DNA of 64,000 nucleotides from NCBI GenBank assembly GCA_902553945.1, contig CACDMT010000001.1, positions 7,239 to 71,238 on the forward strand. The letters run 5' to 3'. This DNA is from an uncultured Alphaproteobacteria bacterium. GTDB taxonomy: Bacteria > Pseudomonadota > Alphaproteobacteria > HIMB59 > GCA-002718135. The notes under the pieces are model-generated. The model was not told where the DNA came from, ran no database searches, and saw nothing but the letters and a program-made list of their open reading frames with translations. This document shows, piece after piece, positions 1,460-23,257 of the stretch. The first letter of the stretch is position 1. Every line of letters starts with the position of its first letter. Made by a program: the position numbers and the translations under genes.

Positions 1460-2011
1460 CTAAATATTAGTTGATCCTACTGCTATGACATTATTCAAAT
1501 TAAAATAATTTTTCATATTATCTTTATTAATGCCACCAGTCGGTATGAAAAGAATTTCATTATAAATATCATCTAAAACTTTCAGTGACTTTGCTCCTCC
1601 ATTTTGTTCAGCATGAAAATATTTTAAAATTTTAAAACCATACTCTAATGCTGTTAAAATTTCGGATGGAGTTGATACTCCTGGTATAAAAAAAATATTA
1701 TTTTTTTTTGAAATTTCTAACATTTTTTGATTAATACCTGGTGAAACATAAAAATCAAATTTCAATTTAATTACTTCTTCAAGAACAGGCAAGGATTTTA
1801 TTGAACCAATTCCGATATTGATATTTGGATTTTGCTCCTTAAGTTTAACTGCTGTTTTCAAAGCCTCATCACTTCTTAATGTTATTTCGATTAATTTATA
1901 ACTTTCTGAAACAAGTCTATTAAATTTATTTGTGATTTGGCTTTCAGTACCCTTACCAATAATAGGTATAACTTTTTGCAACTTTATAGTTTGAATCAGT
2001 TTATTTGACAT
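1460..2011 (-). CDS. eda: 2-keto-3-deoxy-6-phosphogluconate (KDPG) / 4-hydroxy-2-oxoglutarate aldolase
   Basis: 183 aa class I aldolase-like sequence (IEITLRS, PGVSTPSEI, LKYFHA with candidate Schiff-base Lys, IPTGGI). 11-bp overlap with upstream kdgK. Confidence 0.75.
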   Translation of the reverse strand: MSNKLIQTIKLQKVIPIIGKGTESQITNKFNRLVSESYKLIEITLRSDEALKTAVKLKEQNPNINIGIGSIKSLPVLEEVIKLKFDFYVSPGINQKMLEISKKNNIFFIPGVSTPSEILTALEYGFKILKYFHAEQNGGAKSLKVLDDIYNEILFIPTGGINKDNMKNYFNLNNVIAVGSTNI

Positions 2012-2912
2012 AATTTTTTACTTTGAAATAATCTTTGTGAATAATAGCTCCTTTAAAATTTGCAACAGTTTTTCCAAGATTATGTGCCAATTTCAAACAC
2101 TCTTCAATTTTTTTATTTTTGAAATAATTAAAAAGAAAGCAAGCATTAAATGCATCTCCACATCCGGTAGTGTCTTTAACATTTTTATTTAAATAAAATT
2201 TATATTTTTCTATTTTATTCTTATTGTATATATTCACATTTCCATTACGTAATCTGAATACAATAATTTTGTTCTTAGTATTTATTGGAGTAAAATATTG
2301 AGATTTTCTTAAACCCAAATTTTTTAAATCTTCAGTTGTTATAAAAATAATATCAGATATCTGACTAAATCTAATTATAGACTGTTGTGCATTTTTTTTA
2401 TTACTCCAATTTTTTATTCGAATATTAAAATCAAAATAAATTTTTATGCCACTCTTTTTTAATAAACTTAAGAGTTTATAAAATTTATTAATACTTTTTT
2501 GATTGTAAATTGATAAAGTAATGCCTGAAAAATAAATTGCTTCATATTTAGAAACTTTATTAAACAATACATTAAGATTTACTTTTTCAAATAAACTTTT
2601 AGCAGCTGAATCAGATCTCCAATAAAAGAAATTTCTTTCACCTTTGCTATTATTTTTAATAACATATAACCCTATAGTCTTATTTTGATTATAATGAATA
2701 TTATCGGTCTTTACTTTTTCTTGTTTTAAAAAATTAACCATTTTCTTACTAAGAAGATCATTTCCAACAGAAGTAATGTAAGATGATTTAGCGCCCAATC
2801 TTGAAAGATAAATTGCCGAATTAGCAGTATCTCCTGCGTAACTAAGCTTAAAAGTATTTTCATTAATATTCGATAACTCAATCATACATTCACCTATCGA
2901 ACAGATGCGCAT
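2001..2912 (-). CDS. kdgK: 2-keto-3-deoxygluconate kinase (PfkB/ribokinase family)
   Basis: 303 aa. N-terminal GECMIEL...AGDTANSAIYLSRLG and C-terminal DTTGCGDAFNACF signatures of PfkB sugar kinases. Adjacent to eda. Confidence 0.8.
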   Translation of the reverse strand: MRICSIGECMIELSNINENTFKLSYAGDTANSAIYLSRLGAKSSYITSVGNDLLSKKMVNFLKQEKVKTDNIHYNQNKTIGLYVIKNNSKGERNFFYWRSDSAAKSLFEKVNLNVLFNKVSKYEAIYFSGITLSIYNQKSINKFYKLLSLLKKSGIKIYFDFNIRIKNWSNKKNAQQSIIRFSQISDIIFITTEDLKNLGLRKSQYFTPINTKNKIIVFRLRNGNVNIYNKNKIEKYKFYLNKNVKDTTGCGDAFNACFLFNYFKNKKIEECLKLAHNLGKTVANFKGAIIHKDYFKVKNYVK

Positions 2913-2917
2913 TTATT

Positions 2918-3760
2918 TTATTTGTATAAACTAGAAATATCTATTTCGGTAATATGCCATCTACCTAAATTTGCTGTATACATAGTATTCCCGTCTTCTG
3001 AAATTGCTATATTTGTAGGATGAGCCATTGTGGTACAAATTTTATCCTCTATAAGAATTTTAGTATTGCCTTTTGTATCAGCCATATAAATTCTAGATGG
3101 CTCATAACAACTAATAAATAAATTATTTTCTTTATCAAATGCCAAACCATCTGGAACTATAGCAATATCCTCTGTAAAAATTTCTTTTTTTCCAAAAGAG
3201 CCATCATCATTAATTGGTAATCGAGAAACACATGGGTGGAATGATTCTACAACATATAAAAAAGAACCATCAGGAGATAAACACATACCATTTGCAAAAT
3301 TAAATACCTCTTCAGAACATGGACCACCTTCTCCCGTTAATAAATCAAATCTATATAAACCAATACCTTTTTCATTAAATCCAAAACTATCAGAAACATA
3401 AACACAATTTCGATTTTGATCAATCACAGGATAATTTGGAATTTTAGGACCCTTTGCAAATTCTTTAAAAGATTTATTACTACTATCATACTTGTAAAGT
3501 GCAGCTTCTTTCATTTCACATGCAAAAACATTATTTTTATTATCGATTGCTATACCTAAGATAAATCCACCACTACTAGCTAAGCATTCCATTTTAGATT
3601 TATCTTTTTCAATTTTCATTATTTCTCCATTTTCTGTTCCACAATATACATTACCCTCATTGTCTAGAGCAACACCTTCAGGATGTTGTAATCTTGGATT
3701 AGAAAATATTCCATCAAAATAAACTTTTGCTTTATCTGAATCTAAAATTGGCTCCATCAA
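2918..3760 (-). CDS. SMP-30/gluconolactonase/LRE-like beta-propeller lactonase (copy 1)
   Basis: 280 aa with repeated propeller-blade pattern (PEGVALD, NGMCLSPDG, PDGLAFD, PTNIA). Sits in the operon with kdgK and eda. Confidence 0.7.
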   Translation of the reverse strand: MMEPILDSDKAKVYFDGIFSNPRLQHPEGVALDNEGNVYCGTENGEIMKIEKDKSKMECLASSGGFILGIAIDNKNNVFACEMKEAALYKYDSSNKSFKEFAKGPKIPNYPVIDQNRNCVYVSDSFGFNEKGIGLYRFDLLTGEGGPCSEEVFNFANGMCLSPDGSFLYVVESFHPCVSRLPINDDGSFGKKEIFTEDIAIVPDGLAFDKENNLFISCYEPSRIYMADTKGNTKILIEDKICTTMAHPTNIAISEDGNTMYTANLGRWHITEIDISSLYK

Positions 3761-3769
3761 TTCCTCCTT

Positions 3770-5500
3770 TTAGTTTAAGTTTTTAATTAACTTTTTTTCT
3801 TTTCTAATTATTTCTTCAAGTAATTTTATTCTTTCTTCTCCACTTGTAAACTCTAACTTTCTAATATTAAGTGGGTCAACTATATATCTTAATACATTTA
3901 ATTGACTTGTTGTTGGCATTTTAGTTATTTTACAATCTTTTTTATATTTCACTTTGAAAGATGTATTCTGTTCAATGTCTTTTTTTGTAACTCCTTTATG
4001 AATACTAGCTACTTCTAATAAACCAGTTTTTTTATTTTTTTCAAAAATACATAAATTTGTAAATATTTTAACGTCACCTGGTTTTAAACCTGCTCTTAAT
4101 CTATCTTTATCTTTGAATAAACCTCTACCAGCACTGACATAATCTACTTTTTCAACAAAACTTAATTTAGAATGTTTAGTGACATAACCAACAAAATGTT
4201 GATGAAGATTACATACATCTGCCATGCCGCCTTGACCTGGTAATCTAAGAACTCCTCCACTTTTTTTCTTAATCTCAATATTATTAACATCTCCATATTT
4301 ATCAATTTGTGCCGCTCCTATAACTTCGTGAGTTATCTGACCATTTTGATAATAAATACTATATGAGTCATCACCTCCCCAATAATTTATACATGTTTCT
4401 CTATCTAAAACTTCACTAAAAGATAAAGTCATTGGTCTGAAACTCACATCATGATGTCCATATGTCATCGTTGTAAGTATTAATTTAGGAGCGTGAAGTT
4501 TTTTTGCGAGAAAATAAGAAACGTTTGCTAATGGTGATACTGCACCTGAACTGCATAAGCTATTATTATTATATTCATTTGCTAATGCAAAGGCCATTAT
4601 TTCATCACTTGTTATTTTTTCTTTAGATTTTTTATTCTTGTAATTTTTAGCTAGATAGGTTTTAAAAAATTTAGAACCTAATTTGTTTGACTTAGTTACA
4701 AATTGTTTATTTTTTTTAAAACTTGTTCCAATTTTAAGTGGTGTCTTTAAAAAAGCATTTTTAAGATCTTCGTAATCAGTTATATAGTAAGGCACTGAGG
4801 AAGTTGGATACGCACCGTAAGGTACATGGGCAATTGCTTTGATAAAGTTTTTAGAAATAAGACTTCCTTTCTTTTCACGTGCTAAAATATCTCTAGATAC
4901 AACTTCATCAACTGTTACAATAACTTGCTTGCTAGCACCAGCCATAATAGTGTCTAAAGCACGAGGACCTAGAATTTCTACATTTCCATCTTCATCAGCT
5001 CTACTTGCATGAAGGAGAAAATTATCAATTTTTAAAGATGGGACAATTGCAAACTGATTTTTTGAAATAGGGTCTTTAAACTTTTTACAAAATTTTGTTT
5101 TTATGGGTAAATCAGATCCCCAGGGGTATTGAAATATTTCAGAGTCTATATTTTGTTGTCCTGCACGTAATGCCTTAATTAATCCAAGAGCAGACCAATC
5201 TATAACTTCGATTTTTTTATTTTCACAAGTTTTTCTAAACAAAGGTGCAAGCCCAAAAATATCTAAGCTTGAAAAACAAATTTGAATTTTTTTAACTGCA
5301 TTTTTTTGTAGAAAAAGTTCTAAAGCTAAACCTCCTGACCAGCTAATAAATTCTAAATTTTTTGGTTTATTTTTTAATAAATTATTTATCAATGCAATTG
5401 GCAATCTCGCAAAGTGATGACCTCCTATTCCTATAGAAGTATTATTTTTAATAAGACCTGATAGATGATTTAAAGATTTAAATTTAGATGAAAGTTTCAT
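3770..5500 (-). CDS. Fused class I CoA-transferase (GctA-like N-half + GctB-like C-half)
   Basis: 576 aa. The N-half resembles glutaconate CoA-transferase subunit A (IGIGGHHFARLP; HASRADEDGNVEILG; AHVPYGAYPTS). The C-half carries a PGQGGMAD-type beta-subunit region. Zero-bp junction with the upstream gene. Confidence 0.7.
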   Translation of the reverse strand: MKLSSKFKSLNHLSGLIKNNTSIGIGGHHFARLPIALINNLLKNKPKNLEFISWSGGLALELFLQKNAVKKIQICFSSLDIFGLAPLFRKTCENKKIEVIDWSALGLIKALRAGQQNIDSEIFQYPWGSDLPIKTKFCKKFKDPISKNQFAIVPSLKIDNFLLHASRADEDGNVEILGPRALDTIMAGASKQVIVTVDEVVSRDILAREKKGSLISKNFIKAIAHVPYGAYPTSSVPYYITDYEDLKNAFLKTPLKIGTSFKKNKQFVTKSNKLGSKFFKTYLAKNYKNKKSKEKITSDEIMAFALANEYNNNSLCSSGAVSPLANVSYFLAKKLHAPKLILTTMTYGHHDVSFRPMTLSFSEVLDRETCINYWGGDDSYSIYYQNGQITHEVIGAAQIDKYGDVNNIEIKKKSGGVLRLPGQGGMADVCNLHQHFVGYVTKHSKLSFVEKVDYVSAGRGLFKDKDRLRAGLKPGDVKIFTNLCIFEKNKKTGLLEVASIHKGVTKKDIEQNTSFKVKYKKDCKITKMPTTSQLNVLRYIVDPLNIRKLEFTSGEERIKLLEEIIRKEKKLIKNLN

Positions 5501-6520
5501 TTATAGATTGCTTACAGAAAATGAATAATCTGAATAAAGGGGTTTATCTTTAAAAAGTTTTATACTAGTTGCTACATTTCTTTTAGATATCGGATTTTCT
5601 TTATTCAAAGAAATATGCGTTGATAGTCCAAAAGCAGATGAAATTGGTTCAAAACCAACTGTTACATGATTGCTATTCCATGGATATTCTGTTCTGCCTT
5701 TATTACTAACCCACATAAGCACTGAAGAAAAATGATCAGGATTCCATGAAAAATTAAATTTGTAATTATCTTCAAAATTCTCAAAAGACATATTGCCATC
5801 AATACCACAAAGCTGAAAGAGGTCTTCAAAGTTTCCTTCAAATGGTGGTTTTGAGATATCTATGATATTTCCATTAAATCCTTCAACTTTTTCTAATGTA
5901 GAAAATTCTTTCCCTACAGCTCCTAATGTTTTATCTTTTAAAACTAATCCTGGATAGTTAAGTCCAAATTTAAAATTACCTGGATTTATTTTTATTTTTG
6001 ACATTTTTTTTGGTATGCGTAGCATCGGATGCAAACCAATTGGTAATTCACAATCCTCTTTTACATGTATTTGAAGTGTGCAAAATATTTTATTAGGCTT
6101 GTCATCCTGAACTTGAATAGTTCTTACTAGAAAATTAACTAAATCGTTTTCAGGATAATGTATTTTAAATTCTAGTTTATTTGATTCTTTTTCTATTAAT
6201 TCCCAATTTTTATTTGAGCTATAACCATGTGGTTCATTTACAATGTATGGTTCTTCTGAATATGATTTTTCCCATTCTTTAGTAAGTGCTTCAACAGGAG
6301 AATTAATCCCAAAAGGAACACATGGGAATTCCCCTTTAAGGTTTTGAAGTATACCTGGAAGTGAATTAAATTCTTCTGAATTATCTTCAAGCCACTCAGG
6401 CTCATGAAGGGGTTTAATTTTTTTTCCGTCAAGATTGAATATGGGAATCATTTTACATCCCAATGTATCAACTTCAACTTCTCCACCTTTCCAATTAAGT
6501 AAAATTTTTTCAGCCATCAA
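5501..6520 (-). CDS. Divergent galactose-mutarotase-fold (aldose-1-epimerase-like) protein
   Basis: 339 aa. Spaced motifs PHGYSSNKNWEL, GLHPMLR and VGFEPISS resemble the HG..W / HP.F / EP pattern of aldose epimerases. Assignment is by eye only. Confidence 0.4.
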   Translation of the reverse strand: MMAEKILLNWKGGEVEVDTLGCKMIPIFNLDGKKIKPLHEPEWLEDNSEEFNSLPGILQNLKGEFPCVPFGINSPVEALTKEWEKSYSEEPYIVNEPHGYSSNKNWELIEKESNKLEFKIHYPENDLVNFLVRTIQVQDDKPNKIFCTLQIHVKEDCELPIGLHPMLRIPKKMSKIKINPGNFKFGLNYPGLVLKDKTLGAVGKEFSTLEKVEGFNGNIIDISKPPFEGNFEDLFQLCGIDGNMSFENFEDNYKFNFSWNPDHFSSVLMWVSNKGRTEYPWNSNHVTVGFEPISSAFGLSTHISLNKENPISKRNVATSIKLFKDKPLYSDYSFSVSNL

Positions 6521-6522
6521 TA

Positions 6523-7755
6523 TTACCTATCTACAGTTATTATTTTTTCTTCTTCATATTGTTTAATTTCATCAATAGAATAACCGAATTCTTGCAATAT
6601 TTCATAGCTATGCTCTCCCACTAAAGGAGCTGGCTTAGAAATTTTAGGAGGAGTTTCACTCATCTTAGCTGCTGGAGATACAGTACGAACAGTTCCATAT
6701 TTTTCATGAGTATAGCTAGTAAACATTTTCATATGTTGAACTTGAGGATCATCTAATACTTCTACATGTTTATAAACAGGAGCTACCCAAGCACCTTTGT
6801 CTAATAAGGTATTAAGAAGATATTCACTTGTATACTCTATCGTTCTTTTTTCTATATGGTTAAATATTTCATCTCTTTTAGTAAATTGTATTTGAGATCC
6901 AAATGCTCCTTTAGGGCCATCATCCTTATAATTAGTAGATATAGTTTCATCTTCTAATACCTCAGCTAAAAGTTCGAGTGAGGCAATTGCGATACTTATA
7001 TATTTATCTTTGGTTTTATAAACTCCAAAAGGTGCTGCAGTTCCTGGATGACCAATACCAGAGTTTGCTCTTTCAAATTCTTGGTTTAGGTTAAGCACGG
7101 CAACAAATTCTTGAAGCTCATGTTGCAAAAGAGCACTTAATAAATCAATTTGTATTTCCTGACCTTTCCCAGTTCTGTCCCTATAGTAAACTGCAGACAA
7201 AATACTAATTACCATATTATAAGATCCTAATTGATCTGCCATTCCGGCTCCTACTGTTACTGGAGGTCCATCAGCTCTTCCAGTATTATAGGTAAGTCCT
7301 GACATACCTTGTATTAAAATATCTTGCCCCGGTCTCTTCGCATATGGACCTGTTCTTCCATAGCCAGATCCATTACAATAAATTATTTTTGGATTTATTT
7401 TTTTCAAATCTTCAAATCCAAAACCAAGTTTGCTCATGACTCCCGGTCTGAAATTTTGAATTACAACATCACAATCTTTAACCATCTTATATAAAATATC
7501 TTTACCTTTAGTACTTTTCATATCTATCGCTAAAGATCTTTTATTTCTATTCCATGATAAAAATGTAGCTGCTTGTGTTCCTCCTACTTTTTTATTGAAA
7601 AAGTGCCAGCGCCTATAATCATCTCCTACTTCAGCTCTTTCAATTTTGTAAATGGTTGCTCCATAATCTCCTAAAATTTGTGTAGCAAATGGTCCAGCCA
7701 AAAGATGGCTAAAATCTAAAACCTTCAATCCACTTAATGCTGATTTATCTTCCAT
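6523..7755 (-). CDS. Class III CoA-transferase (CaiB/BaiF family)
   Basis: 410 aa. Typical N-terminus LSGLKVLDFSHLLAGPFATQILGDYGATIYKIE and QNFRPGVMSKLG motif. Confidence 0.85.
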   Translation of the reverse strand: MEDKSALSGLKVLDFSHLLAGPFATQILGDYGATIYKIERAEVGDDYRRWHFFNKKVGGTQAATFLSWNRNKRSLAIDMKSTKGKDILYKMVKDCDVVIQNFRPGVMSKLGFGFEDLKKINPKIIYCNGSGYGRTGPYAKRPGQDILIQGMSGLTYNTGRADGPPVTVGAGMADQLGSYNMVISILSAVYYRDRTGKGQEIQIDLLSALLQHELQEFVAVLNLNQEFERANSGIGHPGTAAPFGVYKTKDKYISIAIASLELLAEVLEDETISTNYKDDGPKGAFGSQIQFTKRDEIFNHIEKRTIEYTSEYLLNTLLDKGAWVAPVYKHVEVLDDPQVQHMKMFTSYTHEKYGTVRTVSPAAKMSETPPKISKPAPLVGEHSYEILQEFGYSIDEIKQYEEEKIITVDR

Positions 7756-7760
7756 AAAAA

Positions 7761-8561
7761 TTACTTACTTCGTGAACCTGCCCCAGGTTTCATTCTTGGA
7801 GTTATTGTAAGTCCTCCATCTACTCTGAAATCAGCACCGTTAGTAAAAGCACCTCCATCAGATGCAAGAAAGACAGCTGTGGCTCCTATTTCTTCTGGTT
7901 CACCAATTCTTCCAATGGGATGCATACCTAATTGCTCTTCAAATAGTTTTCCTGTTCCATCTTCTGAAACAACTTGTTTTACCATCTCAGTATTTATAGT
8001 TCCTGGAGATATAGAATTAGTTCTTATGTTATAAGGACCAAACTCTGTTGCAAGCTGTCTTGTCATAGATATTATTCCTCCCTTGGTTGCAGCATATGCT
8101 GCCCAGCCTGGAAGTGGGGTATGAGCTTGTGCAGAAGCTATATTTATTATTGAACCTCCACCTATTTTTTTAAAAATTGGTATTGAGTGTTTACACCCAT
8201 AAAATACACTTGATAAATTGGAACCGATTACTGCATGCCAATCTTCGTTTGACATATCCGTAACAGGGTAACCGCCAATTGCTCTTGCCGCGTTATTTAC
8301 TATAACATTAAGAGTATTAAATTTTTTTTCAGCAGTTTGGATAACATTCTTTACTTCTTCTTCTTTAGAAACATCAGCTTTAACAAATGTAACATTTGAA
8401 TTGATTTTCTGTAAGTCTGCGCAAACTTGTTCACCTAGTTCTACATTCACATCTGATAATACAACATTAGCTCCAGAGTTAACGAAACTAGTTGCTATAG
8501 CTTTTCCTATTCCTGATGCTGTTCCAGTAACAACTGCAACTTTATTTTTTAAATCAGTCAT
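7761..8561 (-). CDS. Short-chain dehydrogenase/reductase (SDR)
   Basis: 266 aa. TGTASGIGKA cofactor motif, NNAA, catalytic YAATKGG (YxxxK). Confidence 0.85.
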   Translation of the reverse strand: MTDLKNKVAVVTGTASGIGKAIATSFVNSGANVVLSDVNVELGEQVCADLQKINSNVTFVKADVSKEEEVKNVIQTAEKKFNTLNVIVNNAARAIGGYPVTDMSNEDWHAVIGSNLSSVFYGCKHSIPIFKKIGGGSIINIASAQAHTPLPGWAAYAATKGGIISMTRQLATEFGPYNIRTNSISPGTINTEMVKQVVSEDGTGKLFEEQLGMHPIGRIGEPEEIGATAVFLASDGGAFTNGADFRVDGGLTITPRMKPGAGSRSK

Positions 8562-8578
8562 ATTTTTCTCCTTTATCT

Positions 8579-9532
8579 CTATAATGATCTATTTCGTTTT
8601 AATTCATCAAATCCTACAGCAATAATTATTATTACGCCATTAACAACTAATTGCCATTGTGTATCAATATTTAATAATCCTAATCCATTGGAAATTACTG
8701 ATAAAATCAATACGCCAATTGCTGCTCCAGTTAAAGATCCAATACCACCTGCTAGACTAACACCACCTAATACTACTGCTGCAACCACTTGAAATTCAAA
8801 TAAATCTCCTGCAACATGATTTGCAGATCCAATTCTTGACGCAAGAATTATTGCACTTATAGAACTAAGAAAAGAGCAAATAACAAATGCACTTAATTTT
8901 AAAAGTTTTATGTTATATCCAGCTAATCGAGCAACTTCTTGATTGCCTCCAACAGCATATAATTTTCTTCCATAACTGGTATTTCGCATTACAAATATAA
9001 ATATTAATAAAATAATCAATCCTATTATAGCTGCATAAGGGATGGTTCCCATAAATTTACCATTACCAATATAAAAAAAGAAATCTGACATTAATTCATC
9101 TGGAATAGCTCTTTGACCGGTATAAAGATATACAGCACCCCTAAGGATAAATAACATACCTAGTGTTACAATTAAGGAGCTTACACCTAGATAGACAGAT
9201 AAATATCCATTGATAAGACCAATAATAATTCCAAATATTAAACATAAAATTATTCCTAAAGGAACACTTCCAGTAATATTCATAATTTCTATTAGTGGCA
9301 GCGATACAAATGCTAGAAGGGATCCAATTGAAATATCTACTTCACCAGCAATTAGTAAAACTGAAAAACCAATTGCCGCAATTAGAATAATAGACAACTG
9401 ACCTGAAACATTCATAATGTTACGCAAGGTAAAAAAATATTCCGAACTAAAAGAAAAAATTATAAAAACAATTAAAAAAATTATAAATAATGCTAATTCA
9501 CCTTTTCTTAAATATTTTAAAATATTATTCAT
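8579..9532 (-). CDS. Sugar ABC transporter permease (RbsC/AraH type)
   Basis: 317 aa polytopic membrane protein with GEVDISIGS motif typical of the ribose-type permease family. Confidence 0.8.
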   Translation of the reverse strand: MNNILKYLRKGELALFIIFLIVFIIFSFSSEYFFTLRNIMNVSGQLSIILIAAIGFSVLLIAGEVDISIGSLLAFVSLPLIEIMNITGSVPLGIILCLIFGIIIGLINGYLSVYLGVSSLIVTLGMLFILRGAVYLYTGQRAIPDELMSDFFFYIGNGKFMGTIPYAAIIGLIILLIFIFVMRNTSYGRKLYAVGGNQEVARLAGYNIKLLKLSAFVICSFLSSISAIILASRIGSANHVAGDLFEFQVVAAVVLGGVSLAGGIGSLTGAAIGVLILSVISNGLGLLNIDTQWQLVVNGVIIIIAVGFDELKRNRSL

Positions 9533-9533
9533 T

Positions 9534-11030
9534 TTAGTTTACTGATGCCTTAAATATTTCTTCTTGTGTAACTTTGCCTCGATAAAATTCTTTACTAATT
9601 TTACCATCAGCCATTACTAATATTCTATCACTAAGACTTAAAAGATCATTCATTTCTGAAGTCATAAGGAGTACTGACAGTCCTTGTTTAGCAAGATCAT
9701 TAATTAGACTTAATACTTCTGTTTTAGCTCCTATATCAACACCACGTGTTGGTTCATCGAGGATGATTATTTTTAATTCTCTTATTAACCATCTACTAAC
9801 TAAAACTTTTTGTTGGTTGCCGCCACTTAAAAGAGTTATTAATCTCTCAGAGGAAGGTGTTTTTACTGAAAATTTTTTAATATATTCATCTGCTGCCTTT
9901 TTTTCTCTTTTCCGATTGATAATAAACAAATCTTCAAATATTTTAAGACTTGGTAGGCTCATATTTTCTCTTAAATTCATGTCTTTAACAATGCCCTCGC
10001 CTTTTCTATCTTCAGTAATATAGCCAATACCATTGTTAACCATTGTTGATGTATTAAAGCTTTTATAAATATTATTATTAACTTCTATTTGTCCTTCAGT
10101 AATTTTATCATAACCAAAAACAGCTTTTGCTAGTTCAGTTCTTCCTGCGCCCATAAGTCCAAAAAAGCCTAAAATTTCACCTTCATGTAAATCAAATGAA
10201 ACATTTTTAATTTTATTTTTAGAACTAATTTTTTCAACCTTCATGACTGTTTTTGCACTTAAAATATCTTTAGGTCTTTCAAATGTTGCATTTACAGTTC
10301 TACCGACCATATCCTTAATAATTAATTCTTCATTAGTTTCAGATATGAGTTTATTTGAAATATGTTGTCCATCTCTTAGCACTGTAACTTCATCAGCTAT
10401 TTTAAAAATTTCATCAATTTTATGAGTTACATATAAAATTGCTATATTATTTTGCTTCAAATTTTTTATAACGGTAAATAATTTTTCAATTTCATTAGGA
10501 GTTAAAGAAGAAGTTGGTTCATCCATTATAACTACAGAAGCATTTTTAAAAACAGCTCTTGCAATTTCAACCATTTGTTGTTGAGAAATAGATAAATCTG
10601 AAATTTTAGATTTTGGATTTAAATTAAAACCGACTCTGTTAAATAATTCTTCTGTATCTTTATAAAGTTTATTCCAGTTCATTACACCTAAACTATTTGT
10701 AGGAAAATTATCTAGGAATATATTTTCAGCGACAGAAAATTCGGAGATAAGTGATATTTCTTGATAAACAACTTTAATTCCATAATTTAAACTATCATTT
10801 GGATTTCTGATATTTAACTTATTTTGATCAAATAAAATATTACCTGTATCTTTTGAGTAAGCTCCTGCTAAAATCTTTATAAGTGTTGACTTACCAGCAC
10901 CATTTTCTCCCATAAGTGCGTGAACTTTTCCAGCAGAAATTTTCATACTTACATTATCTAAAGCCTGCACACCGGGAAAAGACTTGCTGACTGATTCAAT
11001 ATTCAATTCTTTAAAATTAATATTAACCAC
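9534..11030 (-). CDS. Sugar ABC transporter ATP-binding protein, tandem ATPase (RbsA/MglA type)
   Basis: 498 aa with two NBDs: Walker A GENGAGKST, signature LSISQQQ / LSGGNQQK, Walker B IMDEPT / ILDEPT. Confidence 0.9.
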   Translation of the reverse strand: MVNINFKELNIESVSKSFPGVQALDNVSMKISAGKVHALMGENGAGKSTLIKILAGAYSKDTGNILFDQNKLNIRNPNDSLNYGIKVVYQEISLISEFSVAENIFLDNFPTNSLGVMNWNKLYKDTEELFNRVGFNLNPKSKISDLSISQQQMVEIARAVFKNASVVIMDEPTSSLTPNEIEKLFTVIKNLKQNNIAILYVTHKIDEIFKIADEVTVLRDGQHISNKLISETNEELIIKDMVGRTVNATFERPKDILSAKTVMKVEKISSKNKIKNVSFDLHEGEILGFFGLMGAGRTELAKAVFGYDKITEGQIEVNNNIYKSFNTSTMVNNGIGYITEDRKGEGIVKDMNLRENMSLPSLKIFEDLFIINRKREKKAADEYIKKFSVKTPSSERLITLLSGGNQQKVLVSRWLIRELKIIILDEPTRGVDIGAKTEVLSLINDLAKQGLSVLLMTSEMNDLLSLSDRILVMADGKISKEFYRGKVTQEEIFKASVN

Positions 11031-11958
11031 TATTTTTTTTCCTTACACCATCAAAATAAACAGCTAATATTAATATAAAGCCTGGTACAATAAGTTGAAA
11101 TTCTTGAGGTATTCTCATTAAAATTATTCCATTATCAATAATTTTTAAAATTAGTATTCCTAAAATAGTTCCAATGATTGTTCCTTTACCTCCCATGAAA
11201 CTTGTACCGCCTAAAAGAACAGCGGCAATTACTATTAGTTCAAAGCCTTTTGCTGATCCTTGTTGCCCAGTATCCATTAAAGAAGCAAGAATTACTCCAG
11301 ATACTCCAACTAAAAGAGAAGTAATAACAAAACCTATAACCTTATATCTATTATTATTAATACCTGATAATTTAGCAGCATCAGGATTACTTCCAATTGA
11401 AGAGAAATATCTTCCGTATCTAGTGTAATTTAGTAAAACTACAAAGAAGGGTAAAATAAATAACATTATAACTACTGGCATTGGAATATTTAAGAAAAAA
11501 CCTTGTCCAATAAAACTAAATAATGGAATCAAATGTGTATTGTATATAGCAGCCATAGAATAAACATATACGCTGCCTTGAAGTATAAGCATCATTGCTA
11601 AAGTAGCTATCAAAGAATTTACATTTAAAACTGTTCTAACTAAACCATTGATTAAGCCAATAAAAAGACAAAATCCAAAAACTGCTATTAATCCAAGAGA
11701 AATGCTTCCTGTTATATTTATAACATCCATTACAATTACAGTAACAAATGACATTAAAGCTCCAACAGACAAATCAACTTCGCCACTTGTTAAAAGAATG
11801 GTCATTCCAAATGCAACTATCATGACTGTAGAGCTTGAACGAAGTATACTATGAATATTTTGGATACTATAAAATTGCGGATTATAAAAAGACAAAAAAA
11901 TACACAGCAATACTAGTAAACCAAAAAGTATTGATTCATTTGTTTGAAAATATTTCAT
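11023..11958 (-). CDS. Sugar ABC transporter permease (RbsC type), second subunit
   Basis: 311 aa polytopic protein with GEVDLSVGA motif. 8-bp overlap with the ATPase gene. Confidence 0.8.
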   Translation of the reverse strand: MKYFQTNESILFGLLVLLCIFLSFYNPQFYSIQNIHSILRSSSTVMIVAFGMTILLTSGEVDLSVGALMSFVTVIVMDVINITGSISLGLIAVFGFCLFIGLINGLVRTVLNVNSLIATLAMMLILQGSVYVYSMAAIYNTHLIPLFSFIGQGFFLNIPMPVVIMLFILPFFVVLLNYTRYGRYFSSIGSNPDAAKLSGINNNRYKVIGFVITSLLVGVSGVILASLMDTGQQGSAKGFELIVIAAVLLGGTSFMGGKGTIIGTILGILILKIIDNGIILMRIPQEFQLIVPGFILILAVYFDGVRKKNSG

Positions 11959-11981
11959 TGCATTTGAAATTTATGTTTAAA

Positions 11982-12008
11982 TTAAGCCTCCATAATAAGG
12001 AGGCTTAA
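11982..12008 (-). promoter_or_regulatory. Intra-operon stem-loop immediately after the binding-protein gene (attenuator / mRNA stabiliser candidate)
   Basis: Perfect 10-bp inverted repeat ttaagcctcc (11982-11991) / ggaggcttaa (11999-12008) with a 7-nt loop. It lies between the SBP stop (12021) and the permease start (11958). Only a weak U-run follows on the minus strand. Confidence 0.5.
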
Positions 12009-12020
12009 TTATTTTTAAAA

Positions 12021-13040
12021 TTACAGATCAGAAGAGTACTTAGTACACTTTGTTTCCGTTGGAATTTTAGCTACATTTTCAAAATTAATAGCTCTTTTTT
12101 GACCAGCTTTATCAAAGTCATAGTACTTAGCAAAGTTATGAACTGTTAATGCTAAAGTTGGTGTTACTTTATGTTCTGGAACATCAACACCATTAAATAA
12201 ATCAACAGCAAGATTCATTCCTGTGTAACCAACTCCTTCTGGAAACATTGCTGCTTCGACTAAGTATGGAGTTCCTTCTTTAGTCATTTCATTTAAAAAT
12301 GCTAAACCCTCTGAACCTGTACCAGCAACAACAAGATCATCTTCTGGTAATCCGGCAGCTCTCCAAGCTTGAAGGCCACCTAATGCTGATCCATCGTTTA
12401 TACCATAAATAACATTTATGTTTGAGTCAGCAGCTAGAGCTGCAGAAGCAACTTCTACTGAACTGTCAATCATACCAGAGCCATCTAGTTCATGAACTTT
12501 TACTGCATCAACATGTTGCGCAAGAGCTTCCATGAAGCCAAGAGATCTTAAAAGAGTTGCAGATAGTAATGGTAATCCTACATCCATTACTCTTGCTTGA
12601 CTTTCACCTCTTGATACAAGGATTCTTCCAACTGCATCTCCAGCTTTATAACCAGCATCATAATCACAAATAGCAAACAAGGTTGTCATACCTTTTGCAG
12701 GGTTTCCTTCAAGAACAGTTGGCATTCCTTCTGCTTTTGCTTTTCTTAAAATTGGAACAACCCCTTCTTCATTAACTGGCGTCATGATTAAAACATCAAC
12801 TCCTTTAGTCATGAAATCTTCAGCTTGTTGTGTTTGTTTATTTATATCTAAATTTGCATCCATTACTTCTAAATCAATACCTAATTCATCTGCTCTAGAT
12901 TGTAATCCGAATATAACGTTTTGATACCACTCGTGAGTACCATAGTTTACAATATAACCAATCCTTTTAGGATTAGCAGAAATTGACATAGCTAAAGATA
13001 AAGTAATAATAGCTGCTAAAAACCAACTAACTATCTTCAT
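12021..13040 (-). CDS. Periplasmic sugar-binding protein (RbsB/LacI-fold, Peripla_BP family)
   Basis: 339 aa with signal peptide MKIVSWFLAAIITLSLAMSISA. Type I periplasmic binding fold pattern. Strong GGAGG SD. First gene of the operon. Confidence 0.8.
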   Translation of the reverse strand: MKIVSWFLAAIITLSLAMSISANPKRIGYIVNYGTHEWYQNVIFGLQSRADELGIDLEVMDANLDINKQTQQAEDFMTKGVDVLIMTPVNEEGVVPILRKAKAEGMPTVLEGNPAKGMTTLFAICDYDAGYKAGDAVGRILVSRGESQARVMDVGLPLLSATLLRSLGFMEALAQHVDAVKVHELDGSGMIDSSVEVASAALAADSNINVIYGINDGSALGGLQAWRAAGLPEDDLVVAGTGSEGLAFLNEMTKEGTPYLVEAAMFPEGVGYTGMNLAVDLFNGVDVPEHKVTPTLALTVHNFAKYYDFDKAGQKRAINFENVAKIPTETKCTKYSSDL

Positions 13041-13208
13041 TTAATCCTCCCTTTTAAATTTTACATCATATTATGATATTATCTGCATATGTAAACCCTA
13101 TTTTTACATATAAACAAAATGTTCATATTTGAATTATTAACATATTAGTTACTTGTTTTATTAGTGTTTATATGTAACAATATTTAGAAATAATTAAGAA
13201 GTATTATT

Positions 13209-14183
13209 ATGTTTTTAGTAACTGGTGGAACAGGATTTATTGGTAAAAGAGTTGTAGCACAATTATTACAGAAGAATATTCAAGTCATAGCTACAGATAT
13301 TAATACTAAAAATGAAATGGACAGTTTTGAAAAATATTTATCTGTTAAAGGTGTTTCAATTAAAGACTTAGAGTTATTAGAATTAGATATTTCTTCCAAA
13401 CAAGATTTAAATAATATTTTTAAAAATTATAAAATCTCAAACATTATTGCTTGTGGATATCAAATGAGTAATCTTATTGATAACAATCCAATTCAGGGTG
13501 CTGAGGTAAATATAGTTGGAATGACAAATTTATTCCAGGCTGTTTTAGATAACAAAATTCATAGAATGATTTTTCCAAGTAGTCAAAGTGTATACGGTAC
13601 ATCATCAAAATTATTTAATGATCAACCAGTATATGAGGATGATTATTGTGGGCTTCAACATCAATTATTTACATATGCAGTTATGAAATTATTAAACGAA
13701 TTTATGGCTCAAAAATATGTCTCAATGCATAACGTTAGTATTGCGTGTACAAGACCCTCGGTTGTTTTTGGTTATGGAAGAAAACGCAGTTCATTAATGT
13801 GGGCTGAAGAGTTTGCTACAAATCCTGCATTAGGAAAACCCGTTCATTTACCCTTCCCTGAGTCAAACAAAGATAATTATATATATGTAGAAGATTGTGC
13901 AGAGCAATTTATTGAATTGAGTTTAAAAGAAAAATTGAATCATTTTGTTTATAACACTGGCTCAGAAACTGTTTCAGGAACTGAATTAAAACAAATAATT
14001 AATGAATTGATTCCAAATGCAGAAATAACTTTTGATGAAAATGGAAAACCAACACCTTTTATTGATGATCAAAATGATCAACGCATTCGAAAAGAATTAT
14101 CATTTGTTCCAAAAAGTCTTAAAGAGGGAATAAGAGCTCACATGAACGAAGCAAGAATTGCGAATAATTTAAACCCAATATAA
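13209..14183 (+). CDS. NAD-dependent epimerase/dehydratase family protein
   Basis: 324 aa. N-terminal VTGGTGFIGKRV Rossmann motif and YAVMK (YxxxK) catalytic motif. Confidence 0.75.
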   Translation: MFLVTGGTGFIGKRVVAQLLQKNIQVIATDINTKNEMDSFEKYLSVKGVSIKDLELLELDISSKQDLNNIFKNYKISNIIACGYQMSNLIDNNPIQGAEVNIVGMTNLFQAVLDNKIHRMIFPSSQSVYGTSSKLFNDQPVYEDDYCGLQHQLFTYAVMKLLNEFMAQKYVSMHNVSIACTRPSVVFGYGRKRSSLMWAEEFATNPALGKPVHLPFPESNKDNYIYVEDCAEQFIELSLKEKLNHFVYNTGSETVSGTELKQIINELIPNAEITFDENGKPTPFIDDQNDQRIRKELSFVPKSLKEGIRAHMNEARIANNLNPI

Positions 14184-14194
14184 AAAGGAAGAGT

Positions 14195-15232
14195 ATGTTA
14201 AAAACTACAACTGTTGGAAGCTATCCAAGAAAAGATAAACCAAAAGATACATTAAGGAAACCTACAGTTAGTGAAAAAGAAGCTCTAGATATGGTTCAGT
14301 GGGCTGTTGAAGACCAGTGTAATATTGGTCTAGATTATATTACTGATGGTGAATCATATAGAGAAAATATGTATTGGTTCTATCAATTAAGAATTGATGG
14401 AGTAGATAGTGAAAATAAAAAATATAAACAATTTACAGTTGGGGGATCTACTGAAAATGTTGATTTATCTAAAGCTCATCCTTTAGTAAAAGAAAAAGGT
14501 GGATTTGGTATAGAGTGTGCAGTTGTAAATGATGAAATAAAAAATCAGAAATGGAATTTAGCTTCAAAATGGAAGAAGGCTCAAGATACTGCTGGTGACA
14601 GAGCTGTTGTAAAACAAACAATTACTGGACCTCATATGCTATCAAGATTTTCTGTTAACGAAAGAACTGATTTATATAGAAATGATACTGAATTGGCTTA
14701 TGCTTATGGTAAATGTATAAAAGACGAAATTGATCAATTACAACAATTAGGTTGTGAGAGAATTCAATTCGATGAACCTGTACTTACTGAATCTCCGGAT
14801 GAATGTGTATGGGCTGCTGATGTAATTAATGATATTGTTGATACATTTCCAAATATGTATTTTAGCCTTCATATATGTGGAGGAAACGCACATAGAAAAC
14901 GAGGTTATTTTGGAAAATATGATGATATGGTAGATGGTCTTAAAAAACTTAAAGTGCAAGAATTACATTTAGAACATTGTACTCTTCATTATAGTATGCT
15001 GGATGTTTTTGAAAAATATGATTTTAAAGGAAATATATCTTTTGGAGTTGTTGATCAAAGAACAGATGAACTTGAAAGTGTAGAAGAAGTTCATAAAAGA
15101 ATTAAGCCTGTTATTGAAAAGTTTGGAGCTGATAGAATTATTTTATCTAGTGAATGTGGCTTTGGTCACGTTCCTCTTGAAATTACTAGAGCAAAATTAT
15201 CAAGATTAGTTGAAGCTGCAAAAAAATATTAA
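14195..15232 (+). CDS. Stand-alone MetE C-terminal-domain-like protein (Meth_synt_2 / core-MetE family, Zn methyltransferase fold)
   Basis: 345 aa. TTVGSYPR N-terminus, ITDGE, LHICGGN and SSECGFGH motifs matching the His/Cys/Glu/Cys zinc site of cobalamin-independent methionine synthase catalytic domains. Confidence 0.7.
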   Translation: MLKTTTVGSYPRKDKPKDTLRKPTVSEKEALDMVQWAVEDQCNIGLDYITDGESYRENMYWFYQLRIDGVDSENKKYKQFTVGGSTENVDLSKAHPLVKEKGGFGIECAVVNDEIKNQKWNLASKWKKAQDTAGDRAVVKQTITGPHMLSRFSVNERTDLYRNDTELAYAYGKCIKDEIDQLQQLGCERIQFDEPVLTESPDECVWAADVINDIVDTFPNMYFSLHICGGNAHRKRGYFGKYDDMVDGLKKLKVQELHLEHCTLHYSMLDVFEKYDFKGNISFGVVDQRTDELESVEEVHKRIKPVIEKFGADRIILSSECGFGHVPLEITRAKLSRLVEAAKKY

Positions 15233-16228
15233 TTATGGAGTTAAAATAATTTTTGGTGAAATTGATTTTCCTTTATTAATAAAGTCAAAAATTTTTTGTC
15301 CATTTTTTAATTTTGCAAAACTTTTCCATGAGAAACTTCCTAATTTATTTTTACTTATCATAATTAAGGAATTTTTAAATTCTTGTTTAGTATATGCATA
15401 AGATCCAATTAATTGGATCTCATTTCTAGTAAGTTTTAAAAAATTTATACCATTATTTATTTCTGATAAACCAATATGTATTATTAAGCCCCCAGATTTT
15501 ATTAAATTAAGTGATTGCTTTCTTGAGTCTTTTGATCCAACAGCATCGTAAATAATATCAAATTTTTGTTTTAATAATTTTTTTTGATGAGGTTGGAATA
15601 TAGATGCTTTAGTATGCTTTTTAGATATTTCTAGTTTTTTAAGATTAAAATCAACTATATTTAACTTATTAATTTTTTTTGATCTTAATATTAAAGCAGT
15701 CAATAAACCAATAGAACCAGCTCCAATGATTAACAAATTTAATTTTGCTAAATTTTGATCAGTGTGTTTTTGGGATAAGTTAACAGCATGAAGAGCAACT
15801 GCTGTTGGTTCAATTAAAGTAAAATTATAAATGTTATTAGTTTTTGGAATATATGAAACATTACTTCTAGGTATAGATAATAATTCTGCAAATCCTCCAT
15901 TTTTTTTTATTGGTTTGGTCATGCCAATCATAGAAAGTTTAGAACATAAATGGTCCAAATTTTTCTTACAATTTTCACATTTGCTACATGAAATTATTGG
16001 GTTTATTGCACAATATTTATTTTTTTGTAAATCAATTCCAATAACTTCGTGACCAAGAATTATAGGTGGTTTTTTTTTAACTTTATCTAAACCATTAAAA
16101 GCATGCATGTCTGAGCCACAAATTCCAGTAGCTAAAACTTTAATAAGTATTTCATTTTTTTTAAGCTTTGGTTTTGAAACTGTTTTATATGTGAGTTTTT
16201 TTGTAGAAGAAAAGACAAGCGCTTTCAT
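15233..16228 (-). CDS. Zn-dependent alcohol/polyol dehydrogenase (MDR family)
   Basis: 331 aa. GICGSDMH catalytic Zn motif, structural Zn cluster CSKCENCKKNLDHLC, GAGSIGL Rossmann motif. Confidence 0.8.
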   Translation of the reverse strand: MKALVFSSTKKLTYKTVSKPKLKKNEILIKVLATGICGSDMHAFNGLDKVKKKPPIILGHEVIGIDLQKNKYCAINPIISCSKCENCKKNLDHLCSKLSMIGMTKPIKKNGGFAELLSIPRSNVSYIPKTNNIYNFTLIEPTAVALHAVNLSQKHTDQNLAKLNLLIIGAGSIGLLTALILRSKKINKLNIVDFNLKKLEISKKHTKASIFQPHQKKLLKQKFDIIYDAVGSKDSRKQSLNLIKSGGLIIHIGLSEINNGINFLKLTRNEIQLIGSYAYTKQEFKNSLIMISKNKLGSFSWKSFAKLKNGQKIFDFINKGKSISPKIILTP

Positions 16229-16236
16229 AAAAATCT

Positions 16237-17334: not shown

Positions 17335-17335
17335 A

Positions 17336-19065: not shown

Positions 19066-19068
19066 TAA

Positions 19069-20148: not shown

Positions 20149-20167
20149 GTTAAAGAATAAATTTTTT

Positions 20168-20197
20168 AACTACCCCTCATTTACATGAGGAGTAGTT
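20168..20197 (-). promoter_or_regulatory. Stem-loop immediately after the binding-protein gene (intra-operon attenuator / stabiliser candidate)
   Basis: 13-bp inverted repeat aactacccctcat (20168-20180) / atgaggagtagtt (20185-20197) with one mismatch and a 4-nt loop. It lies between the SBP stop (20208) and the next gene start (20148). No U-tract follows. Confidence 0.45.
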
Positions 20198-20207
20198 TTG
20201 CAAGAGA

Positions 20208-21560: not shown

Positions 21561-21736
21561 ATTTCCTCCAATAATAAGAGAGATATTACACGCTATCCTC
21601 AAATTTAAAAGCTAAATTTATATACAATATTGAAAAAAATAATGAAAAAATATAGTTGAGATGTATTTTTAAGTTGATTATTTTAATTACTTTATTTTTA
21701 AATTAGATTTTAATTAATTATTTATAGAGGTATGAC

Positions 21737-22066: not shown

Positions 22067-22078
22067 TTAAAGAAAAAT

Positions 22079-23254: not shown

Positions 23255-23257
23255 GTC

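Follow-up and report, generated by a model that had tools for sequence, protein, structure and literature searches.

Two CoA-related proteins in an alphaproteobacterial sugar-oxidation operon and the possible dehydration of aldonates as CoA thioesters

Introduction

How does an operon for sugar oxidation carry a sugar acid on to 2-keto-3-deoxygluconate (KDG) if none of its genes encodes a recognised dehydratase? This question is raised by eleven minus-strand genes at 1460-13040 of a 64-kb stretch of contig CACDMT010000001.1, from an uncultured Alphaproteobacteria bacterium; the whole 64-kb stretch that was analysed is referred to here as the window. The steps of the semi-phosphorylative Entner-Doudoroff (ED) pathway are catalysed by glucose dehydrogenase, gluconolactonase, gluconate dehydratase, KDG kinase and an aldolase for KDG or KDPG (2-keto-3-deoxy-6-phosphogluconate), written KD(P)G aldolase. 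An initial annotation of the window, made from the sequence alone, had described the eleven genes as one compact sugar-to-KDPG operon with two coenzyme A (CoA) transferases at its centre and no acid-sugar dehydratase.

The biochemical gap in the operon is real: the step from the sugar acid to KDG has no recognised enzyme there, and Pfam and NCBIfam profile searches found none of the IlvD/Edd, enolase, UxuA or UxaA dehydratase types inside it. Our reading, to which we give a probability of roughly 45%, is that the locus is an oxidative sugar operon (the sugar being most likely D-glucose) of a SAR11-type, AT-rich marine alphaproteobacterium, that its pathway is a variant of the semi-phosphorylative ED pathway, and that the aldonate would be dehydrated as its CoA thioester.

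Gene content of the operon

All eleven open reading frames (ORFs) are present at the coordinates and in the order first reported, and no long ORF competes with them. They are tightly packed at a G+C content of ~29%, and our analysis supports treating them as a single compact operon. In operon order the junctions measure 62, -8, 1, 17, 5, 5, 0, 9, 5 and -11 nt, where the second of the 5-nt values, directly before the gene for the mutarotase-fold protein (Mut), assumes the ATG at 6517 as the Mut start. The largest gap, 62 nt, follows the gene for the substrate-binding protein (SBP) and agrees with the upper bound of the 0-62 bp range given in the initial annotation; the lower bound of that range does not stand, as the kdgK and eda genes overlap by 11 nt. 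The family assignments made at that time hold in Pfam and NCBIfam profile matches. All operon genes described below lie on the minus strand.

The entry to the pathway would be formed by a short-chain dehydrogenase/reductase (SDR) of 266 aa (7761..8561), a probable aldose (glucose) 1-dehydrogenase, and by an SMP-30/gluconolactonase-family lactonase of 280 aa (2918..3760). The SDR passes the cut-off of NCBIfam NF005559, the "glucose 1-dehydrogenase" subfamily (232.5 bits against 215), and gives full-length matches to the Bacillus glucose 1-dehydrogenase structures 1gee, 1gco and 3aus. The lactonase matches PF08450 (SGL) at 74 bits and is 47-51% identical to the lactonases of related clusters. 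At the family level, the operon is thus predicted to encode both the glucose 1-dehydrogenase and the gluconolactonase that characterise a semi-phosphorylative ED pathway.

The exit from the pathway is encoded by the last two genes, for a KdgK-like PfkB-family kinase of 303 aa (2001..2912; PF00294) and for a KDPG/2-keto-4-hydroxyglutarate aldolase (Eda) of 183 aa (1460..2011; PF01081, 142 bits). In the alignment with E. coli Eda, E42 falls on E45, and K130 on K133, which forms the Schiff base. The protein is ~30 residues shorter at its C terminus than E. coli Eda (213 aa), and because the same length of 183 aa is found in four related loci (L082, L083, L090 and L091 of the comparison set described below), we regard its shortness as a lineage feature and not as a truncation.

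Mut (338 aa with the ATG at 6517; 5501..6517) is a distant relative of DUF4432. Searches of Pfam, NCBIfam and the PDB with its sequence gave no match, PF01263 not reaching significance, and only 1 of its 51 homologues carries a precomputed PF01263 match. Its fold was found only by structure prediction and Foldseek, which bear out the mutarotase fold proposed in the initial annotation: the AlphaFold model has a pLDDT of 95 and matches aldose 1-epimerase-like structures with a probability of 1.0, among them YphB, Slr1438, YeaD and GalM (3nre, 3k25, 2htb and 1l7k), with E values down to 8e-16 and ~12-14% identity to solved mutarotases. Residues H97, H163, E231 and E290 of Mut are invariant. H97 and H163 align with H104 and H175 of E. 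coli GalM in a weak hhalign match only (probability 0.84%, E = 0.066), and the His/His/Glu set of H97, H163 and E290 aligns with that of DUF4432 at an hhalign probability of 79%. Of the catalytic set of GalM (H104, H175 and E309), the two His residues were aligned directly with Mut. The simplest role for Mut, as suggested by its predicted structure, would be to supply the dehydrogenase with the right anomer.

The transporter is encoded by the first four genes of the operon. The periplasmic SBP, of the CUT2/RbsB type (339 aa; 12021..13040), matches PF13407 (Peripla_BP_4) at 109 bits and falls far under the cut-offs of the NCBIfam equivalogs RbsB, YtfQ and XylF; its nearest solved structures are ribose-binding proteins, at E = 1e-18 only, and it is 58-60% identical to the SBPs of Mesorhizobium and Rhodobacteraceae clusters. 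It is followed by ABC permease 1 (311 aa; 11023..11958; PF02653, BPD_transp_2), for which the best NCBIfam matches are AraH and RbsC, both under cut-off, by a tandem RbsA/AraG/XylG-like ABC ATPase (498 aa; 9534..11030) with two PF00005 stretches and 520-555 bits to the RbsA, AraG and XylG profiles, under the equivalog cut-offs, and by ABC permease 2 (317 aa; 8579..9532; PF02653).

The two CoA-related proteins

The first of the two proteins at the centre of the operon is a class III (CaiB/BaiF/Frc) CoA-transferase of 410 aa (6523..7755), here called CaiB-like, which matches PF02515 (CoA_transf_3) over its full length (337 bits, residues 7-383 on profile positions 1-366). Its Asp174 is invariant and lines up with the Asp used in catalysis by two E. 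coli enzymes, Frc (LGDS) and YfdE (LADL); in Frc this is Asp169, the catalytic aspartate that forms the mixed anhydride. All characterised NCBIfam equivalogs stayed far under their cut-offs with this protein, two examples being succinate-glutarate CoA-transferase (231 against 750) and Frc (228 against 504). The CaiB-like protein has an intact catalytic residue and is the orthologue of no characterised member of its class.

The second protein (576 aa; 3770..5500; PF01144, CoA_trans) has the class I CoA-transferase fold and joins the equivalents of GctA and GctB in one chain; we refer to it as the GctAB fusion. Its best sequence matches in the PDB are AibA, IpdB and GctA/B, with both halves covered by GctA and GctB. 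The relatives AibAB and IpdAB are found at E = 1e-13; for the N-terminal domain, AibA ranks first among solved relatives in sequence. By Foldseek, the top matches are the fused transferases SCOT and YdiF (TM scores 0.58-0.76). In class I CoA-transferases the beta domain provides a catalytic Glu (S-E-N-G in AtoA, Glu54 in the vESG of GctB), which carries the CoA thioester. In the GctAB fusion the position of GctB Glu54 is occupied by Thr346, and in 17 of 17 homologues, which cover three subfamilies, it is Thr or Ser. No Glu was found within 4 positions on either side of Thr346 in a MAFFT alignment with AtoA and GctB. The status of this residue is taken from the phmmer alignment to GctB and from the MAFFT alignment with AtoA and GctB; hhalign comparisons of the family covered E. 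coli AtoA in its C-terminal part only and YdiF in its N-terminal domain only, and the Glu position lies outside both.

A second catalytic position differs as well. Glu105 of IpdA corresponds to Ala104 in the GctAB fusion, invariant in the family; as a marker for this position we used the residue that differs between structures 6co6 and 6coj, the latter of which we take to be the Glu105Ala variant. In contrast, the glycine-rich loop (GxGG, for CoA and the oxyanion) is retained, reading PGQGGMAD where AtoA has PGMGGAMD and GctB has TGSGGANG. The description of the operon as holding two mechanistically different CoA-transferases cannot be kept, since the catalytic residue is intact in the class III protein (Asp174) only and the fusion has Thr346. 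The GctAB fusion is probably not a transferase, and is most simply seen, judging by its alignments, as a CoA-ester-binding enzyme with some other chemistry. It carries neither the residue that defines a class I CoA-transferase nor that of an IpdAB-type hydrolase, and on this evidence should be filed as neither.

Distribution of the CoA genes

We fetched 71 loci encoding Mut relatives, reached further contigs through GctAB-fusion and CaiB-like proteins, and compared them by BLAST and Pfam (loci of this set carry the prefix L). About 950 clusters of the GctAB fusion and more than 1,300 of the CaiB-like protein were found. Distant Alphaproteobacteria have the core genes in the same order, with protein identities of 43-60%, and the arrangement is not due to chance.

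One order, type A, runs ABC transporter, SDR, CaiB-like, (crotonase), Mut, GctAB fusion, lactonase. Its SAR11-like carriers, with the same eleven genes, are the window, L082/83 and L090/91, the last two being contigs whose CaiB-like protein is named "Pelagibacteraceae bacterium" by NCBI and which hold the eleven genes in the same order. Further carriers are MarineAlpha5 (L080/81), Oceaniglobus (L013), a Rhodobacteraceae bacterium (L023), L029, L088, an Inquilinaceae metagenome-assembled genome (L016) and six Mesorhizobium loci. Identities of type A proteins to those of the window are 50-60% for the SBP, 51-55% for the CaiB-like protein, 42-44% for the GctAB fusion and 47-51% for the lactonase; the Pelagibacteraceae version of the CaiB-like protein is ~65% identical to that of the window. 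Type B (Devosia L012 and L017) lacks the GctAB fusion; its order is crotonase, CaiB-like (37%), SDR, Mut, and a lactonase and a further SDR are also encoded. Type C (Shinella, Ensifer, other Alphaproteobacteria and Burkholderia) has no CoA genes; there, Mut, SDR, lactonase and ABC transporter are joined by a dehydratase resembling UxuA and by an RraA-like aldolase; in Shinella, Ensifer and Burkholderia the UxuA-like gene occupies the same slot as the CoA genes of the other types. Type D (L085, L086) runs ABC transporter, DUF4432, lactonase, SDR, CaiB-like, GctAB fusion, with a fusion of a different subfamily and with overlapping CaiB and GctAB genes. L089 has the order SDR, CaiB-like, GctAB fusion, UxuA-like. 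Outside the Alphaproteobacteria, the Firmicute Ammoniphilus resinae (L092, 1515-11702) encodes a CaiB-like protein (54% identical to that of the window), an SDR, DUF4432, a CUT2 ABC transporter, a second SDR, an SGL lactonase and a LacI regulator; the contig ends inside a second CaiB-like (CoA_transf_3) gene, and neither a GctAB fusion nor a crotonase was found within the stretch examined. In Vibrio nigripulchritudo (L093), a CaiB-like protein (53%) and a crotonase are encoded together with a TRAP transporter and a cytoplasmic protein of the SBP fold.

The module is always followed by enzymes for a 2-keto-3-deoxy acid or its product: PfkB and Eda in SAR11-type loci, an RraA-like pyruvate aldolase in L088 and L029, and an APH-family kinase in L080. 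The rhizobial module is self-contained, with its own IclR regulator and unrelated flanks. The APH-family (PF01636) kinase stands after the lactonase instead of PfkB and Eda in MarineAlpha5 (L080 9002-9973, L081 8785-9756), and in Burkholderia oklahomensis (L084 3567-5904) an APH kinase adjoins an enolase homologue in a cluster of Mut, SDR, lactonase, UxuA-like and RraA genes; this kinase perhaps offers the pathway another exit by phosphorylation.

The Mut gene keeps company with transporter, SDR and lactonase genes even in clusters without CoA genes, so Mut is not specifically tied to CoA chemistry. The trio of CaiB-like, Mut and fusion proteins, which the initial annotation had treated as a unit, is for this reason given up; Mut follows the oxidative sugar genes.

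The same comparison bears on the idea that the two CoA genes were inserted fortuitously from a non-carbohydrate pathway, such as that of carnitine or glutarate, next to a classical pathway with a remote dehydratase. A dehydratase could indeed come in trans. However, the CaiB-like/GctAB pair sits in clusters with sugar ABC transporters, SDRs and lactonases in every lineage examined, which was the outcome of the neighbourhood check proposed with the initial annotation. It does so in two gene orders and with two GctAB subfamilies, often with overlapping stop and start codons, and no carnitine or glutarate genes were found near the clusters examined. Fortuitous insertion is contradicted by this synteny; we consider it hardly credible and rejected it.

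The partners of the CaiB-like protein vary, but every cluster apart from two on truncated contigs encodes at least one of them beside it. It occurs with the GctAB fusion only in the window, L013, L023, L029, L080-83, L085, L086 and L089-91, with a crotonase only in Devosia (L006, L012, L017) and Vibrio L093, and with both in Mesorhizobium, L016 and L088. In Mesorhizobium, L016, L088 and Devosia L006 the crotonase gene separates that of the CaiB-like protein from that of Mut, and its product matches Pfam ECH_1 at 174-184 bits; in L006 no GctAB fusion was found within 10 kb. The partner crotonases are 29-33% identical to E. coli CaiD and retain both of its catalytic Glu residues.

The loci with both partners are a point in favour of a different division of labour, in which a crotonase dehydrates aldonyl-CoA (the in-cluster enzyme in rhizobia, a housekeeping one in SAR11-type genomes) and the GctAB fusion is an IpdAB-like thioester hydrolase or product-release enzyme acting on 2-keto-3-deoxy-acyl-CoA. 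IpdAB, a Glu-less relative, is a hydrolase (PMC6678751), and a crotonase-like domain, with a weak ECH match, is encoded elsewhere in the window at 48987-49313. A hydrolase would, however, waste one thioester per sugar, whereas a CaiB-type enzyme can recycle the CoA; the catalytic Glu105 of IpdA is Ala in the GctAB fusion; and many clusters, streamlined ones included, have the fusion and no crotonase. We think this arrangement quite unlikely.

The Vibrio variant with its TRAP (organic-acid) transporter touches on the nature of the substrate. The CoA pair might activate a sugar acid that is dicarboxylic, uronic or acylated and then decarboxylate or de-acylate it, in the manner of AibAB, ahead of the KDG branch. 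The best NCBIfam neighbours of the CaiB-like protein do act on dicarboxylates (succinate/glutarate, oxalate and mesaconate, all under cut-off), and the N-terminal domain of the GctAB fusion has AibA as its top solved relative in sequence. Against this, the CUT2 RbsB-type transporter, the glucose-1-dehydrogenase-type SDR, the mutarotase homologue and the lactonase all speak for a neutral aldose, and the crotonases among the partners belong to the hydratase type. Glucose use is also reported for operon-bearing SAR11 (PMC3448164). A substrate of this kind seems to us very unlikely.

One further protein was seen near CaiB-like clusters. It has ~390 aa and an SBP fold (SBP_bac_8/SBP_bac_1-like), and is encoded at L001 370-1578, L085 11734-12906, L086 11725-12858 and L093 7779-8969, the hosts being Mesorhizobium, two metagenomic lineages and Vibrio; it is missing from the window. 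Inspection by eye of the N termini in L001, L085 and L093 showed no signal peptide, and these three are 35-39% identical to each other. Possibly the protein is one more partner of the CoA chemistry.

Proposed route and candidate dehydratases

In the route that we propose, an aldose would be imported by the CUT2 ABC system and Mut would supply the anomer used by the dehydrogenase. The SDR would oxidise C1 to give the lactone, which the SMP-30 enzyme would hydrolyse to the aldonate. At this point the class III CoA-transferase, rather than a metal-dependent dehydratase, would act and form aldonyl-CoA, by which the C2 proton would be acidified. The GctAB fusion would bind aldonyl-CoA and eliminate the 3-OH; in relatives, a two-Glu crotonase would do this instead or in addition. 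By the logic of CaiB and CaiD, the 2-keto-3-deoxy-acyl-CoA so formed would hand its CoA to the next aldonate via the same transferase, and as CoA would be passed from product to next aldonate it would be catalytic, with no ATP spent. The PfkB kinase would phosphorylate the released KDG, and Eda would cleave the product to pyruvate and glyceraldehyde-3-phosphate. The enzyme families, the state of the catalytic residues and the synteny are observed in the sequences, whereas the substrate, the aldonyl-CoA intermediate and the identity of the dehydrating protein are inferred. SAR11 isolates bearing the operon reportedly used glucose and did not use galactose, mannose, several pentoses or deoxy-sugars. 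That a CoA-ester-dependent conversion of a sugar acid takes the place of the dehydratase had already been suggested in the initial annotation, and is the reading favoured by comparative genomics. Put generally, for all of these clusters, the proposal would be that aldonates are dehydrated as CoA thioesters, with the class III transferase cycling the CoA and the Glu-less GctAB fusion or a crotonase carrying out the beta-elimination; we hold this tentatively, as a proposition somewhat short of an even chance.

Several observations weigh against this route. The predicted model of the GctAB fusion is only moderate (pLDDT 79). The kinase has NF052444 (2-dehydro-3-deoxygluconokinase) as its best NCBIfam match, at 226 bits and under the cut-off of 400. 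2-Oxoacyl-CoA thioesters are labile as a matter of general chemistry, and a full-text literature search for gluconyl-, galactonyl-, xylonyl-, arabinonyl-, aldonyl- and fuconyl-CoA found nothing. The GctAB fusion and the crotonase are perhaps not equivalent, as Mesorhizobium holds both together, and the CaiB-like protein has neither partner within the available DNA of L018 (a 6.3-kb contig) and Ammoniphilus L092, both of them truncated contigs. The remaining points concern dehydratases near the operon. The statement that an acid-sugar dehydratase is missing stands for the operon itself and not beyond it. Three MR_MLE (enolase superfamily) genes at 22079-23254, at 24944-26113 and, on the plus strand, at 32607-33743 are acid-sugar dehydratase candidates; they lie 9-20 kb from the operon in other sugar clusters, and a dehydratase acting in trans could serve the operon. 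All three of their products score as unspecific acid-sugar dehydratases, with ManD- and gluconate-dehydratase-like matches. In the Pelagibacteraceae contigs and their relatives a UxuA-like gene stands after eda and convergent to it (L090 15338-16393, L091 14314-15369, L082 14482-15537, L083 7595-8650), and in L089 such a gene is translationally coupled to that of the GctAB fusion. This suggests that the two act in sequence rather than as alternatives.

We had also considered a clean replacement of the UxuA-like dehydratase by the CoA genes. This was downgraded, since a UxuA-like gene adjoins or is coupled to the CoA pair in L082/83, L086, L089 and L090/91.

For the same reason we raised our estimate of another explanation, in which the CaiB-like protein makes aldonyl-CoA, the GctAB fusion or the crotonase inverts C2 or C3 (for example, from D-gluconyl-CoA to D-mannonyl-CoA), the CoA is taken off, and a separate dehydratase makes KDG; this would be the UxuA-like enzyme in SAR11 proper and an enolase-superfamily enzyme in the window. 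Next to the arrangements after eda and in L089, a UxuA-like gene is found nearby in L086 and L023, the three MR_MLE candidates could play the corresponding part in the window, gluconate and mannonate yield the same KDG, and the class III family is known to include a racemase, alpha-methylacyl-CoA racemase. Yet no UxuA-like gene was found within reach in the 64 kb of the window, in the six Mesorhizobium loci or in L013, L016, L029, L080/81 and L085, and the MR_MLE genes of the window belong to complete transporter, dehydrogenase and lactonase clusters of their own. Moreover, the partner crotonases bear the two-Glu signature of hydratases and dehydratases, and an enolate with a 3-OH leaving group tends to eliminate. 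Epimerisation is, in our judgement, unlikely, though it is the strongest competitor of direct dehydration.

If dehydration by the CoA pair were confirmed, it would constitute new sugar-acid chemistry in which aldonyl-CoA is an intermediate, and the class I fold would have a third use other than CoA transfer. It would also add a third solution to acid-sugar dehydration, possibly independent of metal and of iron-sulphur clusters, beside the enolase/UxuA and IlvD/Edd types, at work in the SAR11-type glucose pathway, rhizobia, roseobacters, Vibrio and some Firmicutes. The labels "CoA-transferase" and "glutaconate CoA-transferase subunit A", which homologues bear in marine and soil genomes, would be corrected, and a defined system that is easy to reconstitute would be at hand. 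Should the pair epimerise the aldonate instead, this would likewise be an undescribed route. In either case, tools for pathway prediction, whether they score the ED pathway of this operon as complete or as incomplete, are now guessing its middle step. SAR11-type bacteria are among the most abundant heterotrophs of the ocean, and the operon is the reported basis of their variable glucose oxidation.

Transcription signals and neighbouring genes

The 62-nt gap that separates the SBP gene from that of permease 1 contains the stem-loop reported in the initial annotation, a hairpin at 11980..12010 (minus strand) with a 12-bp stem and a predicted free energy of -19.7 kcal/mol (z = -5.3); none of 200 shuffled sequences was equally stable, and a terminator scan also flags the site. 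L082 has a GC-rich hairpin with a T-run at the same position between SBP and permease genes, of a sequence that differs from that of the window; it is the structure of the hairpin, not its sequence, that is conserved between the two. Such a hairpin after the SBP gene is a common feature of ABC operons in which the binding protein is made in excess, and here it may act as a partial terminator or as an mRNA stabiliser giving an excess of SBP.

Upstream of the SBP gene, whose ATG is preceded by the Shine-Dalgarno sequence AAGGGAGG, lies a 168-bp AT-rich spacer (13041..13208) that forms a putative divergent promoter region between the SBP gene and an epimerase-family gene. The spacer holds a promoter-like site on the minus strand (13095-13068) and, at 13087-13111, the palindrome ATATGTAAA-N7-TTTACATAT. 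Of the three copies of the palindrome 9-mer in the whole 64 kb, two are those at 13087-13111. As a conserved operator the palindrome was rejected, as it is not kept in L082 and the 9-mer is not enriched across the window; it may be an operator or may have arisen by chance in AT-rich DNA.

The divergent pair at 13209-15232 consists of this NAD-dependent epimerase/dehydratase-family gene and a short (345 aa) gene resembling cobalamin-independent methionine synthase. Both are conserved beside the operon in the Pelagibacteraceae contigs (72% identity for the epimerase, 86% for the MetE-like protein). The next genes, in a minus-strand cluster at 15233-21602, encode a Zn-dependent alcohol/polyol dehydrogenase, a MalK-type ATPase, two CUT1 permeases, a GFO/IDH/MocA oxidoreductase and an SBP_bac_1 protein. 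The cluster at 21737-26113, probably one for deoxy-sugar acids, comprises an L-rhamnose mutarotase (rhaM), an MR_MLE gene, RidA/YjgF, then on the opposite strand a gene resembling SelA/aminotransferase-V, and finally another MR_MLE gene.

The window also contains a second, "classical" oxidative sugar cluster at 26110-33743, in which the dehydratase slot is filled conventionally and which serves as a comparator within the genome. On the minus strand it encodes a canonical aldose 1-epimerase (Aldose_epim, PF01263; 26110-26982), an SGL lactonase (26982-27854) and an SBP_bac_8 protein (27919-28926), and on the plus strand an ABC ATPase with two permeases (29114-31826) and an SDR (31831-32604), followed by the MR_MLE gene at 32607-33743. 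An amidohydrolase resembling L-fucono-1,5-lactonase is encoded at 34193-35035, and roughly the first 35 kb of the window is a sugar-utilisation island. A tRNA-Leu(CAA) at 41183-41267 is the sole Rfam/ARAGORN match in the window.

Comparison with known systems

The operon appears to match the published SAR11 variant ED ("glycolysis") operon, and the unit as such, judged from citing papers, appears to be already known. The original work (Schwalbach et al. 2010, Environ Microbiol 12:490) is cited in PMC3448164, PMC5029164 and PMC12636525, and the first of these reports glucose oxidation by SAR11 strains that have a "proposed variant of the ED pathway", with reference to the 2010 study. The features apparently shared are the AT-rich marine alphaproteobacterial setting, the sugar ABC transporter, the dehydrogenase, the lactonase, the KDG-kinase-like gene and the KDPG aldolase. 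The Pelagibacteraceae contigs have the eleven genes in the order of the window and the same divergent epimerase and MetE-like neighbours; unlike the window, they have the convergent UxuA-like gene after eda, and their CaiB-like protein is only ~65% identical. Literature searches for Pelagibacter with carnitine dehydratase and glucose, for DUF4432, and for CoA-transferase, gluconolactonase or crotonase in sugar clusters gave nothing relevant. Aldonyl-CoA chemistry, the Glu-less fusion and a wide occurrence of the CaiB-like protein with the GctAB fusion or crotonase in sugar clusters appear, from these searches, not to have been described.

In carnitine metabolism, the class III CoA-transferase CaiB works with the crotonase CaiD, which dehydrates a 3-hydroxyacyl-CoA, and the CoA is recycled. 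The clusters considered here resemble that system in their class III transferase with its catalytic Asp, in the two-Glu crotonase that directly adjoins it in relatives, and in a substrate that would be a 3-hydroxy acid. They differ in their sugar-oxidation context, in the lack of CaiC, CaiA and CaiT genes and, in the window, in having the Glu-less GctAB fusion instead of a crotonase.

Two non-transferases of the class I fold are known, AibAB, a 3-methylglutaconyl-CoA decarboxylase, and IpdAB, a steroid ring-cleaving hydrolase. They have the same fold as the GctAB fusion, are its best solved relatives in sequence, and presumably likewise lack the catalytic Glu of the class I beta domain. In contrast to both, the GctAB fusion has its two domains in one chain, has Ala for Glu105 of IpdA, and is encoded in sugar clusters, not with isovalerate or steroid genes; none of the loci examined, all of them in sugar contexts, shows the isovalerate or 3-hydroxy-3-methylglutaryl genes of an AibAB-type context. 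With its low identity to either, it is the orthologue of neither. As for Mut, it shares the beta-sandwich mutarotase fold and apparently a His/His/Glu constellation with GalM and DUF4432, but differs in having no significant PF01263 match.

For four of the five steps of the semi-phosphorylative ED pathway of archaea and some bacteria, the operon has matching enzyme families. Where that pathway has a gluconate dehydratase of the enolase superfamily or IlvD type, the operon has instead its two CoA-related proteins.

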